A DNA stretch of 51,691 nt from a phage. Position 1 is the stretch's first letter. The number at the start of each line of letters is the position of its first letter. Position numbers and translations under genes: made by a program. Location of the stretch: the sequence record OZ346160.1; one strand, written 5' to 3'. A model generated the notes under the pieces. That model saw only the letters and a program-made list of their open reading frames with translations, was not told the origin of the DNA and ran no database searches. Shown in pieces: positions 21,084-43,550 of this stretch.

Positions 21084-21311
21084 TTAAAGACTGCAATCAG
21101 CGTTTTTAAAGTTATCAATGCTTACCCACTGAAAATTAAATGGATAGCCAGCCTTAACAAGAGTGCGATCGCCAACTCGTTTTGCCCCAAAGATAGCAAC
21201 TGAATACTGCATTCCGCTATTTTCATAAATAGCCGTGCATTCACGTTTAGGCATATTTGCGCAACCAGTCAGCGCAACGGCTGCGATTAAAACGGCAATT
21301 AACTTTTTCAT
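21084..21311 (-). CDS. small lipoprotein, Cor-like superinfection exclusion candidate
   Basis: 75 aa; signal peptide with lipobox LTGC; convergent with tail genes, as for cor genes that follow tail fibre genes in T1/phi80-type phages; assignment by position and lipoprotein character only. Confidence 0.5.
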   Translation of the reverse strand: MKKLIAVLIAAVALTGCANMPKRECTAIYENSGMQYSVAIFGAKRVGDRTLVKAGYPFNFQWVSIDNFKNADCSL

Positions 21312-31991: not shown

Positions 31992-32223
31992 GCAAGGAAG
32001 AGATGCGGTATGGAATCACGCTAAAGAATGCGGTATTGCCGACGATATAAAGAAGATCGCGCAATACTTTGATATTGCAGATGTGAGCATAATTAGCGGC
32101 GACAAGATGACTTTCCTCAAGGAAAGGCCGCGAAAAATGGTAAGAGTTCCAGCAGTTCCAACAAAAATTGATTTCAAAGAGGCAATGGCTAAAATCCGAG
32201 AGCCTCGCAAATATTATAAATGA
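31981..32223 (+). CDS. hypothetical protein
   Basis: Start MKVEQG overlapping previous stop; GGAGG 12 nt upstream. Confidence 0.4.
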   Translation: MKVEQGRDAVWNHAKECGIADDIKKIAQYFDIADVSIISGDKMTFLKERPRKMVRVPAVPTKIDFKEAMAKIREPRKYYK

Positions 32224-32317
32224 GGATAGTTATCATGTGGCGCTTGTTTGTTCTACCGTTACCCGTTATCATCGCTGTTACAGTTATGTACCATATAGTA
32301 ATGAGATAGGTAGCAGA

Positions 32318-33433
32318 ATGAAAAATGTAAAAATTACAGATGAGCAATTCAAGATCGAACGGGCGGCGGGTAAGACATATAAACAGATCGCTCAAGAGTA
32401 CGGGATGAATGTGAGAAGCGTCGAGCGTCGCGCTGCGCGTCTTGCAAAACAAGGACAGGTGTCAACCATTGGAGCGCCTGGTTTTGGTGTTCATGGTGAG
32501 TCAGTAATGACAGACAAAGAAGGCAATATAATCCTCAAGTGGACAAAAACCAGCAAGGACAAAGAGCAATTAGAAGCATTGATGCGCGCAGCAATGGAGG
32601 CGTTTAGCGAGGAAGTGCCGCGATTAGATCCAGTTCCATTGCAGGAGCGTAACTATAATGAAACGCTTTCATTGTATCCGATCTTTGACATGCACTTAGG
32701 AGCTATGGCACATAAGCACGAATGCGGAGAAAATTGGGATACAGCTACGGCTGAGCGCGTTATGAATAACTTTATCGACTATGCTTTGATGTGCGCACCG
32801 GACAGCGAAAAGGCTGTTATCCTGATTGGTGGCGATATGCTGCATAGCGACGGCCTGGAGGCGGTGACACCTGCAAGCGGTCACGTACTTGATCAAGATA
32901 GCCGATATGCAAAATTGGTTTACGTTGCAATCCGTGCAATGCGTCGCGCAATTAATAAAATGCTGTTAAAGCATAAACATGTTGAGGTGCAGATCGTAGA
33001 GGGGAATCACGACCAATCAGGAATGATTTGGCTACGCGCAGCAATGGCGGCAGCATATGAGAACGAGCCGCGCGTTTACGTTGATGTTTCTCCTCGCGTT
33101 GTTCACCACACGCAATACGGAAAAACTTTCCTTGCGTACCATCACGGGCACACAGTGCGCAAACCTGAGACTTTGCTAATGATGTGCGCGTCAGATTGGC
33201 GGGAGGACTTCGGAAACTCAAAAACGATGTATGCGCACGTAGGGCACTGGCATCACCAGACCGTGACAGAAACGTCGCTTGGCATCGTGGAAGTGCATAG
33301 CACCCTGGCGGCAAAAGACGCATACGCCGCGCGCGGTGGCTGGAGATCTCGACGCCGTGCGGCGGTTATCATTTACGACAAAGAGCATGGAGAAGTCGGG
33401 CGATTTGTTCACTATCCAGAAATGATGAATTGA
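32318..33433 (+). CDS. calcineurin-like metallophosphoesterase with N-terminal HTH domain
   Basis: Start MKNVKIT; HTH-like KTYKQIAQEYGMNVRSVERRAARL; phosphoesterase motifs DMH, GGDMLHSD, GNHD, HHGH, GHWHH. Confidence 0.65.
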   Translation: MKNVKITDEQFKIERAAGKTYKQIAQEYGMNVRSVERRAARLAKQGQVSTIGAPGFGVHGESVMTDKEGNIILKWTKTSKDKEQLEALMRAAMEAFSEEVPRLDPVPLQERNYNETLSLYPIFDMHLGAMAHKHECGENWDTATAERVMNNFIDYALMCAPDSEKAVILIGGDMLHSDGLEAVTPASGHVLDQDSRYAKLVYVAIRAMRRAINKMLLKHKHVEVQIVEGNHDQSGMIWLRAAMAAAYENEPRVYVDVSPRVVHHTQYGKTFLAYHHGHTVRKPETLLMMCASDWREDFGNSKTMYAHVGHWHHQTVTETSLGIVEVHSTLAAKDAYAARGGWRSRRRAAVIIYDKEHGEVGRFVHYPEMMN

Positions 33434-33480
33434 TGAATTTTTATTTAAATCAATGACAAATTAAATCAAAAACTTGCAAA

Positions 33481-33510
33481 GGGGCGGCGTTTGTCGCCTC
33501 TTTTTTTTGT
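33481..33510 (+). terminator. terminator-like element before lysis cassette
   Basis: GC-rich imperfect hairpin followed by T8. Confidence 0.4.
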
Positions 33511-33578
33511 TTAATTTTTTACCATGTGCGTTTATCATGCGGTCAATATATTGACTTTAATTAATATGGAGAATAAAA

Positions 33579-33794
33579 ATGAAAGATTTTATTAACGCAG
33601 CTACCGCCGGATCTGGCGGTTCATCTATCGCAAGCGCCGCTACAGGGCAGTTAACCATTGCTATTGCCAGTTTTGTTTTAATGGCTGCATTCGGTGCGTG
33701 GGGCGCTTACCTTCGCTGGCGTGATAGTAAAAAATTCCACGAGGCGATCGAAAAAGGTGATATTCAAAAAGCTATTGAGATCAGGGGCAAGTAA
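33579..33794 (+). CDS. holin (pinholin-like)
   Basis: 71 aa, Gly/Ala-rich hydrophobic segments, charged C-terminus; immediately upstream of SAR endolysin. Confidence 0.55.
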
Positions 33795-34285
33795 TGAGCA
33801 TAAAGAACAGGGTAGCGGCTGCGGCCTTTGGCGTTGCGGTTGCCTTGACTTCTCCACTTCTTGAAGAAATCGAAGGGGTAAGATACAAGCCATACAAAGA
33901 TATTGCGGGGGTATGGACGGTTTGCGCAGGAATCACCGGACCCGATGTTATCCTGGGGAAAACGTACACTAAAAAAGAGTGTGATGCTTTGTTGGCTAAG
34001 CATATCCAGGTTGCCAAAAAGGAAGTTGATAAGCAAGTTAAGGTTGACATTCCTGATAGTATGCGTGCAGCAATGTACTCATTCACTTACAATGCAGGTG
34101 TGGGAGCTTTCAGAAATTCAACAATGCTGAAACTCATCAACCAGGGGAAACTAAAAGATGCTTGCGATCAGCTTTATCGTTGGACGTATTACCACAACCC
34201 CAAAACAGGAAGGCGCGAGAAGTCTAAAGGCTTACTTAACAGGCGCAAGGTCGAATACAAATATTGCACAATGGATCTGAAATGA
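33794..34285 (+). CDS. SAR endolysin (T4-type lysozyme, GH24)
   Basis: Catalytic E-x8-D-x5-T triad ([16 protein letters not shown]); weakly hydrophobic Ala/Gly-rich N-terminal signal-arrest-release segment. Confidence 0.8.
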
Positions 34286-34677
34286 TGAAGAAATTTTTAC
34301 TTACACCAATCGCAATGGCGGTGATCTTGTCTGGATGTTCAAGCGTTACGCCACTGACCGGATTAATCGGCAGTAAGCCGGAAATCACAGCACAGGCTGG
34401 CGCGGAGAACGTGAAGCAGACAGTTGGCATTACAGCAAAGCAGGACGCCAGCACAAAACAGAAAACCACAATAAAGGAATCTTCGGTTGACAAGGTGGAT
34501 ACGTCCAGCAAGAAGGATTTCACAACATCAACCATTCAGGCCAATACCATCAAGGCAGAAAAAATTCAGGTCGTGCAGGGTAATAACGGCAGATGGTACG
34601 ATCCAATAATCATATGCGTGGTTGTGTTCATTGTGCTGATTTGTCTTTACTGGAGGGAAAAGAAAAAGGAGGCTTAA
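34282..34677 (+). CDS. unimolecular spanin (u-spanin)
   Basis: Start MMKKFLL; lipobox LSGCS at N-terminus and single C-terminal transmembrane segment ([16 protein letters not shown]); last gene of lysis cassette. Confidence 0.65.
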
Positions 34678-34693
34678 TGCCTCCTTTATTTTT
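34662..34693. terminator. bidirectional terminator after spanin gene
   Basis: AGGAGGC-ttaat-GCCTCCT followed by TTTATTTTTAT; spanin stop codon lies in loop. Confidence 0.6.
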
Positions 34694-34916
34694 ATGCGTC
34701 GGGCCACATATGAGTTTCGTTTGTTGGCTTGTTCGATTCGTCGTACTGCCTTACTTCAATGCTGCAAGTGTCGCCGTACAGTTCTGCAATCTTGCGCTCA
34801 TTTTCAACCGCCGATTGCTCACTCCATCCAAAATCCCTGTCGTAAATTGTCGGTATTTCAGCAGAAGATCCGTTGTCATGATTATATACGCGAACTACTA
34901 AAAACTTGCTGGACAT
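34692..34916 (-). CDS. hypothetical protein
   Basis: 74-aa ORF downstream of cassette 34953..34997 on - strand. Confidence 0.45.
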   Translation of the reverse strand: MSSKFLVVRVYNHDNGSSAEIPTIYDRDFGWSEQSAVENERKIAELYGDTCSIEVRQYDESNKPTNETHMWPDA

Positions 34917-42816: not shown

Positions 42817-43281
42817 ATGAGCGAGCAATCATTCACTGACACGCTGCGCCGTGCCGCTATTATGCTGGCTAATGGCGAGGAAGAGACGATCAAGATTCCT
42901 GACGCGTATTTGCAGGTCCACATGTTCGGCAAGAAGTCGGCAAGCAATCCGGCGGCCTACATTCGCCAGATCATGAGTCGAGTGCCAGAAGTCGCCGAGC
43001 GGGGGCGCGTATCCGTTACCCGTGGCGTTTACGGGCCGGAAGATGAAAACTTCGGTAGCACTTTCTACGAGGTAAGGATTGTTGAAGGCCGTCGCAAGGT
43101 TTACAACAAAGAGGCACTGGAAAGGGCAGTACGCCAGGCTAAGCGCAAGGTTGCAGAGGCGATCATTGATATGTCACCCAACCTGGCAAACTATGCGCCG
43201 GAAGAGTATGAAACATTATCAAAGGCCGTCGCTGACTTTCACGCGATGATCAAAAAAACTTTCCTGGAGGATGAGCAATGA
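42817..43281 (+). CDS. hypothetical protein
   Basis: Start MSEQSF with AGGAGG RBS; first gene after consensus sigma70 promoter. Confidence 0.5.
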   Translation: MSEQSFTDTLRRAAIMLANGEEETIKIPDAYLQVHMFGKKSASNPAAYIRQIMSRVPEVAERGRVSVTRGVYGPEDENFGSTFYEVRIVEGRRKVYNKEALERAVRQAKRKVAEAIIDMSPNLANYAPEEYETLSKAVADFHAMIKKTFLEDEQ

Positions 43282-43550
43282 AAAAGGCGTTAATCGGCGT
43301 TTTGGCGGCAATGGCATTCCTGACCGGATGCAAAGAAGATGGCGCGCATGTTGGCAATGTGCAGATGGCTAACCCTGGCGATGACTACAGCGTAAGGGAG
43401 CTATTCACCGCCGATGGTTGCACTGTTTACCGATTCTATGACGGTCGCACTGTTTACTTCACCAACTGCAAGGGCACTACTAGCTGGGAAGTGTCGAAAA
43501 GCAATGGCAAAGGCACGAAGACAGAACATATGACCGTCGAGACAAAATAG
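43278..43550 (+). CDS. small lipoprotein
   Basis: 90 aa; signal peptide with lipobox FLTGC; coupled (ATGA) to upstream gene. Confidence 0.55.
   Translation: MKKALIGVLAAMAFLTGCKEDGAHVGNVQMANPGDDYSVRELFTADGCTVYRFYDGRTVYFTNCKGTTSWEVSKSNGKGTKTEHMTVETK

Follow-up and report, generated by a model that had tools for sequence, protein, structure and literature searches.

Gene order and flanking signals

The window analysed here is the whole 51,691-nucleotide stretch of phage sequence record OZ346160.1. On its plus strand, the ORF call finds three co-directional, overlapping ORFs with bounds 33579-33794, 33794-34285 and 34282-34677, exactly reproducing the boundaries that the original prediction had given for three lysis genes. 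The overlaps are read from the sequence as TAATG at the holin/endolysin junction and ATGA at the endolysin/spanin junction. The first ORF (33579..33794, +) is a holin gene of the T1 gp13 family, coding for a putative pinholin of 71 amino acids; this assignment draws on phrog_2877, identity to T1 and the annotation in near-identical phages. The second (33794..34285, +) is assigned as a SAR endolysin gene of the GH24 / T4-lysozyme family and R21 type, with a product of 163 amino acids (PF00959, phrog_7, 3HDE). Finally, the third (34282..34677, +) is read as a unimolecular spanin (u-spanin) gene of the T1 gp11 family, from phrog_1804, the identity to T1 gp11 and the 'u-spanin' annotation in PeterMerian. 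Its 131 amino acids are counted from the ATG that overlaps the endolysin stop codon.

All three genes have profile matches far beyond chance, at 3.8e-32, 5.4e-55 and 5.3e-47 in PHROG, in gene order, and for the endolysin also at 7.3e-39 in Pfam. The gene structure, the motifs and the homology to T1 gp13/gp12/gp11 and to R21 are all evident.

In terms of signals upstream, a Shine-Dalgarno sequence, GGAG, is read directly at 33568..33571 (+), 7 nt 5' of the holin ATG. The 145-bp spacer between the DNA-repair exonuclease and holin genes (33434-33578) is non-coding, with no ORF. It holds a terminator-like hairpin at 33478..33513 (+), in which the hairpin itself (33478-33503) has an 11-pair stem with 6 GC pairs and is followed by TTTTTGTTTA. 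A promoter scan gave 3 sites against a shuffled expectation of 3.1, and the sole one 5' of the holin gene, TTGACT-18-AAAAAT, overlaps the start codon. Since this sole promoter-like site is no better than the shuffled expectation, no promoter is assigned.

As for the exonuclease gene, its mechanically called ORF (32168-33433, +) begins at a TTG and encodes 421 amino acids. The tonijn homologue is annotated at 1197 nt, or about 398 amino acids, and the true start is probably an internal ATG (MKNVKITDEQ...).

A second terminator-like hairpin lies over the spanin stop codon, at 34665..34695 on both strands (hairpin 34665-34687), with a 9-pair stem, 5 GC pairs and T-runs on both strands. Directly downstream of the cassette there is a convergent ORF of 74 amino acids (34692-34916, -), which matches phrog_27210, of unknown function. 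The bidirectional hairpin at 34665-34687 is common to this ORF and to the spanin gene.

Across its full 1.4 kb, the region has a nucleotide identity of 97.7-99.1% to NorthRox, tonijn, tiwna, PeterMerian/Bas05 and about 60 other phages. Two of them, tonijn and PeterMerian, are placed in the genus Warwickvirus (Drexlerviridae, Tempevirinae), and their records carry the same three genes, named holin, endolysin and either Rz-like spanin or u-spanin, the last label being that of PeterMerian. Compared with the Warwickvirus phages (NorthRox, tonijn, tiwna, PeterMerian/Bas05), the gene boundaries are identical and there are a few point differences, none of them structural. The neighbours are also the same in these near-identical Warwickvirus genomes, with the DNA-repair exonuclease upstream and a helicase downstream on the other strand. 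The T1-like assignment proposed earlier holds, with the exact placement being Warwickvirus in the Tempevirinae and not Tunavirus.

At the level of the family, 508 out of 522 Drexlerviridae have the exonuclease-holin-endolysin-spanin module (PMC13164509). A standalone SH3 (DUF7244) gene, accessory to the lysis module, is described between exonuclease and holin mainly in Tunavirinae, Braunvirinae and Rogunavirinae (PMC13164509). A T1-type lysis cassette, at about 75-78% nucleotide identity, is also found in 15 unannotated 'Campylobacter phage' records with C. jejuni as host (for example MG065665.1, MG065638.1, MG065680.1 and MG065636.1). Given their Drexlerviridae-like sequence, this host label looks doubtful.

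The holin and its reading as a pinholin

The phrog_2877 holin profile matches the first gene product end to end, over residues 1-71 (3.8e-32), and the protein is 55% identical to the T1 holin (gp13). All of its 26 database homologues (26/26) carry PF27028. Scanned against NCBIfam and against a Pfam set that lacks PF27028, the holin and the spanin gave sub-threshold noise (DUF3262, RIFIN and spanin2_3, the latter scoring 23.9 bits against a cut-off of 80).

Three regions can be recognised along the protein. Residues 4-23 (33588..33647, +) form a weakly hydrophobic segment, a candidate SAR-like TMD1, composed to 80% of Gly, Ala, Ser and Thr. Its KD(19) of 0.70 compares with 0.64 for TMD1 of S21 68. 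The segment is well conserved, and the residues kept include A8, T9, G13, G14, A20 and Q24. Next, residues 25-45 (33651..33713, +) are a confident transmembrane helix with a KD(19) of 1.89, an AF2 pLDDT of 74-87 and a conserved FGxWGAY motif; F38, G39, G42, A43 and Y44 are invariant in the family. Lastly, the charged C-terminal tail (33714..33791, +) has a net charge of +3, with residues counted from the translation, and is predicted to be cytoplasmic from the positive-inside rule. The gene has a single start codon and the dual-start antiholin motif is absent from it, so there is no dual-start antiholin.

The AF2 model of the holin, built with 26 sequences, is one continuous helix over residues 2-58 with no hairpin, and its first 20 residues have low confidence (pLDDT around 53). 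About two residues, Gly23-Gln24, part the two hydrophobic segments, which leaves little room for a hairpin turn between them. The N-terminal segment, with its KD of 0.70, falls far under the normal TM hydropathy threshold, and one TMD is confidently predicted.

The original prediction called this protein a pinholin. What speaks for this claim is the fit to the published family labels and to the pairing with a SAR endolysin: the holin gene adjoins and overlaps that of an R21-type SAR endolysin, and such pairing is a pinholin trait. The T1-type holin family is labelled pinholin in the literature (PMC6139136, PMC11447400, PMC13164509), and specifically class II pinholin with two TMDs (PMC11447400, PMC6139136). 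Against it, the holin shows no likeness to S21 68 at the sequence level, and a second TMD is not confidently predicted. With hhalign and an 11-sequence family profile, no sequence similarity to S21 68 was detected (probability 0.4%, E 0.16); the S21 68 sequence used in this comparison is 100% identical to the phage 21 record. We found no experimental test of a T1-family holin as a pinholin in the literature. Because of the absent S21 68 similarity, the two-residue gap and the single helix in AF2, the word pinholin is here an architectural and contextual reading, which suggests itself from the architecture, the SAR endolysin pairing and the literature annotation of the holin family.

Any holin that depolarises the membrane can trigger SAR endolysins, as in the phage 21 and P1 systems. 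The pairing could therefore also occur with a holin that is not an S21-type pinholin, either a single-pass protein (N-out, C-in) or a canonical large-hole holin that is paired with a SAR endolysin by chance. We regard this as rather unlikely. In its favour, TM-like hydropathy is reached only by residues 25-45, the segments are parted only by Gly23-Gln24, AF2 gives a single continuous helix with residues 1-20 at low confidence, and the S21 68 similarity is absent. Against it, the hydropathy of the N-terminal segment matches that of TMD1 in S21 68, and its strongly conserved Gly/Ala/Ser/Thr content, the size of the protein (71 vs 68 amino acids) and the comparable charged tail all favour the S21-type pinholin, as does the published class II label with two TMDs.

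A further possibility is that the T1-family holin represents a mechanistically distinct class of pinholin, unrelated in sequence to S21 68. The conserved N-terminal segment abuts the single true TMD without a loop, and therefore it might never insert as a hairpin. In such a class, the holin would cross the membrane once, N-out and C-in, and the segment might serve in the periplasm for regulation or oligomerisation. We put this forward only tentatively and give it a rather low probability. The question of the pinholin concerns the whole T1 holin family and not this sequence alone.

The endolysin and the spanin

The second gene product matches Phage_lysozyme in Pfam (PF00959, 7.3e-39) and the endolysin family phrog_7 in PHROG (5.4e-55), and is 65% identical to T1 gp12. 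Its best solved relatives are the phage 21 R21 structures 3HDE/3HDF (8.7e-48). The 3HDE alignment begins at residue 2 of the endolysin, so it takes in the N-terminal segment as well. The catalytic triad E27-x8-D36-x5-T42 (33872..33919, +) was matched by regex, as expected from the T4-lysozyme E-8-D-5-T triad named in the original prediction, and it aligns to the LEGV...YKDI.GVWT stretch of R21.

A putative SAR segment is found at residues 7-23 (33812..33862, +), after MSIKNR, and aligns to the SAR region of R21. It has 17 uncharged residues, 53% of them Gly, Ala, Ser or Thr, and its KD(17) is 2.01 vs 2.29 for the R21 equivalent. The earlier description of this segment as Gly/Ala-rich needs a correction: with 6 Ala and 1 Gly, it is Ala-rich and not Gly/Ala-rich, and its presence and its alignment to R21 are upheld. 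The cysteines of the endolysin are located only at positions 44, 63, 133 and 158, and the SAR segment has none, unlike the disulfide-caged P1 Lyz type.

The homology to R21 supports the reading of this enzyme as a SAR endolysin, by which the segment would stay uncleaved and be released upon loss of the PMF. A conventional cleavable Sec signal peptide, with the enzyme being secreted, would be the alternative. The N-terminus does have a positive n-region (K4, R6) and a short hydrophobic core, and A15-V16-A17/L18 (AVA|L) fits the -3/-1 rule and might in theory be cut by signal peptidase I. The segment aligns, however, with the R21 SAR domain, which itself bears AxA motifs (AIAIA|S) and is regarded as uncleaved in structure entries and in the literature. 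In addition, the catalytic Glu is only 4 residues beyond the segment, and an active muramidase secreted constitutively would lyse cells prematurely. A Drexlerviridae relative acts as a class II SAR endolysin in Sec-dependent lysis (bioRxiv 10.64898/2026.09.09.750462). Taken with these points, a cleavable signal peptide is very unlikely and the SAR endolysin is the reading that we keep.

As for the third gene, it matches the Rz-like spanin family phrog_1804 at 5.3e-47. The protein is 46% identical to T1 gp11, as read from a T1 record, over 126/131 residues (E 5e-37). This exceeds the gp11 family threshold of Kongari et al. 2018, which asks for 40% identity or more across 40% or more of the length (PMC6139136). 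The homology to T1 gp11 supports the reading of the gene as a u-spanin.

A lipoprotein signal peptide with Cys19 is encoded at 34282..34338 (+), where the lipobox LSGC is followed by Ser-Ser; it was identified by regex and manual check, not by LipoP. The residue after Cys19 is Ser and not Asp, the latter being the one for inner-membrane retention. At the other end, a transmembrane segment spans P108-W124 (34603..34653, +) with a KD(19) of 2.43 and is followed by the tail REKKKEA. AF2 places a helix at residues 108-130, with pLDDT up to 90. The lipobox, by regex and manual check, and the C-terminal TM segment, by Kyte-Doolittle and AF2, are thus both found within 34282..34677, and the lipoprotein signal (LSGCS) and TM segment that had been proposed do occur in one chain. 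The proposed u-spanin architecture as in T1 is likewise borne out, with the same LSGC lipobox in gp11. Besides Cys19, the spanin has just two cysteines, C112 and C121, which lie within the TMD, and none that is periplasmic.

These features are widespread among 120 spanin homologues. The lipobox is LSGC or ISGC in 116/120 and LPGC in 3/120, with a fragment making up the remaining 1/120. A strongly hydrophobic C-terminal segment is present in 116/120 and a positive tail in nearly all, and a periplasmic Cys occurs in only 1/120. In the alignment, the periplasmic domain is kept in sequence and the TMD is kept only in hydrophobicity.

The most conserved part of the periplasmic domain lies at 34531-34575 (residues 84-98) and consists of three five-residue units, TIQAN / TIKAE / KIQVV, in which I85, A87, I90 and A92 are invariant. 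The T1 gp11 equivalent is TIQAN / TVNAE / SITVT.

The periplasmic domain of the gp11 family is described as dominated by beta-strands (PMC6139136). The AF2 model obtained here, from a 36-sequence alignment, has only the signal-peptide and C-terminal helices; the periplasmic residues 30-100 have pLDDT <50 and no strands, so the beta-rich gp11 architecture is not reproduced. Alternating hydrophobic patterns are visible in the periplasmic sequence.

T1 gp11, whose wild-type lipobox is LSGC, complements a lambda RzRz1 lysis defect (PMC6139136). The same study reports u-spanins without a periplasmic Cys and gp11-family members in pinholin/SAR-endolysin cassettes (PMC6139136).

An embedded or separate o-spanin/i-spanin pair was considered and rejected; the other lipobox ORFs in the window are only Cor and an unrelated lipoprotein of 90 amino acids. 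The Cor homologue (21084-21311, -) is a lipoprotein of 75 amino acids that begins with MKKLIAVLIAAVALTGC... and matches phrog_1119 (superinfection exclusion) at 1.8e-28. The 90-residue lipoprotein (43278-43550, +) begins with MKKALIGVLAAMAFLTGCKED..., matches phrog_6360, of unknown function, at 1.6e-08, and is without a C-terminal TMD.

It is extremely improbable that the third gene encodes an ordinary lipoprotein, such as a superinfection-exclusion factor resembling Cor, instead of a spanin: a weak PHROG match to Cor (phrog_1119, 1.6e-05) is limited to residues 2-60 and several GenBank records name the homologue merely 'lipoprotein', but the spanin family match is far stronger (5.3e-47), the identity of 46% is to an experimentally validated protein, T1 gp11 (PMC6139136), the C-terminal TMD is conserved in the homologues, the start overlaps the endolysin stop (ATGA), and the real Cor homologue sits elsewhere, at 21084-21311 (-), with phrog_1119 at 1.8e-28. 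The weak Cor match of the spanin signal peptide likely stems from that Cor homologue.

Proposed lysis pathway and comparison with known systems

Genes for a holin, a SAR endolysin and a u-spanin are all present (3.8e-32, 5.4e-55 and 5.3e-47), in line with the complete lysis pathway proposed originally. We are highly confident that the cassette is the late lysis module of a T1-like siphophage (Drexlerviridae, Tempevirinae, Warwickvirus) for three-step Gram-negative lysis; a holin, a membrane-tethered lysozyme and a single-chain spanin are the usual set with which phages of the T1 type lyse E. coli.

In the first step, the 71-amino-acid holin would build up in the inner membrane and, at the programmed time, oligomerise via residues 25-45 and collapse the proton motive force. 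It most likely makes small 'pinholes', with the Gly/Ala/Ser/Thr-rich N-terminal segment probably serving as the releasable TMD1 of S21 68 does. In the prototype S21 68, the pinholes are heptameric channels of about 2 nm, too small to let a cytoplasmic endolysin out.

In the second step, the GH24 muramidase, exported by Sec, would be kept inactive on the periplasmic side of the inner membrane, tethered by a SAR segment that stays uncleaved. Depolarisation would free this segment from the bilayer, and the enzyme may then refold in the manner of R21; with no Cys in the SAR segment, disulfide caging would play no part. The E27/D36/T42 site would then cleave the peptidoglycan.

In the third step, the u-spanin would receive its lipid at Cys19 and be directed to the outer membrane. 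With its C-terminal helix remaining in the inner membrane and its lipidated end in the outer one, a single chain would cross the murein meshwork and so bridge the periplasm. After murein breakdown, the u-spanin may collapse or oligomerise and disrupt the outer membrane, probably through fusion of the two membranes. We infer the pinhole size, the retention of the SAR segment uncleaved and its release on loss of the PMF, the lipidation and the membrane fusion from T1 gp11, R21 and S21 68.

The analysis confirms the cassette as real and the original interpretation as essentially correct, with low interest. It is already known, being annotated as such in near-identical published genomes and described in the literature. 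Its significance beyond correct annotation is small: it shows the window to be a genome of the Drexlerviridae (Warwickvirus) that carries the holin / SAR-endolysin / u-spanin module standard in the family.

Compared with phage 21, R21 is a clear homologue of the endolysin (8.7e-48), including the SAR segment and the E-D-T triad, and there is no SAR Cys in either. The stretch from the SAR segment to the catalytic Glu is longer in R21, by 6 residues. S21 68 and the holin share an architecture of around 70 amino acids in which the N-terminal segment is weak, the TMD strong and the tail basic. The holin differs from S21 68 in sequence, with no similarity to it, and it also lacks a dual-start antiholin motif and has next to no loop between its two segments. 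The spanin of phage 21 is a two-component Rz/Rz1 and not a u-spanin.

In terms of function, lambda Rz/Rz1 does the same job as the spanin, linking the inner and outer membranes and disrupting the outer membrane after murein degradation. In contrast to Rz/Rz1, one polypeptide here has both the lipoprotein signal and the TMD, and there is no o-spanin frame, whether embedded or overlapping. Its periplasmic domain is free of Cys and is predicted to have no helices. When Kongari et al. compared u-spanins with o-spanins, they saw no similarity (PMC6139136).

A last comparison is with the lysis cassette of T1. The two phages differ in subfamily, with Tempevirinae here and Tunavirinae for T1. They also differ to the left of the holin, where in T1 the exonuclease is followed by a homing endonuclease and a small ORF, and in this phage by only the 145-bp spacer with its terminator-like hairpin. 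In T1, the standalone SH3/DUF7244 gene is placed downstream of the HNH nuclease (PMC13164509). The order, the orientation and the left neighbour (exonuclease/phosphoesterase) of T1 genes 13, 12 and 11 are the same as in this cassette. The lengths here and in T1 are 71 and 71 amino acids for the holin, 163 and 162 for the endolysin, and 131 and 133 for the spanin, with identities of 55%, 65% and 46%. T1 gp11 and the spanin described here have an identical LSGC lipobox, are both free of periplasmic Cys and both end in ...KKEA.
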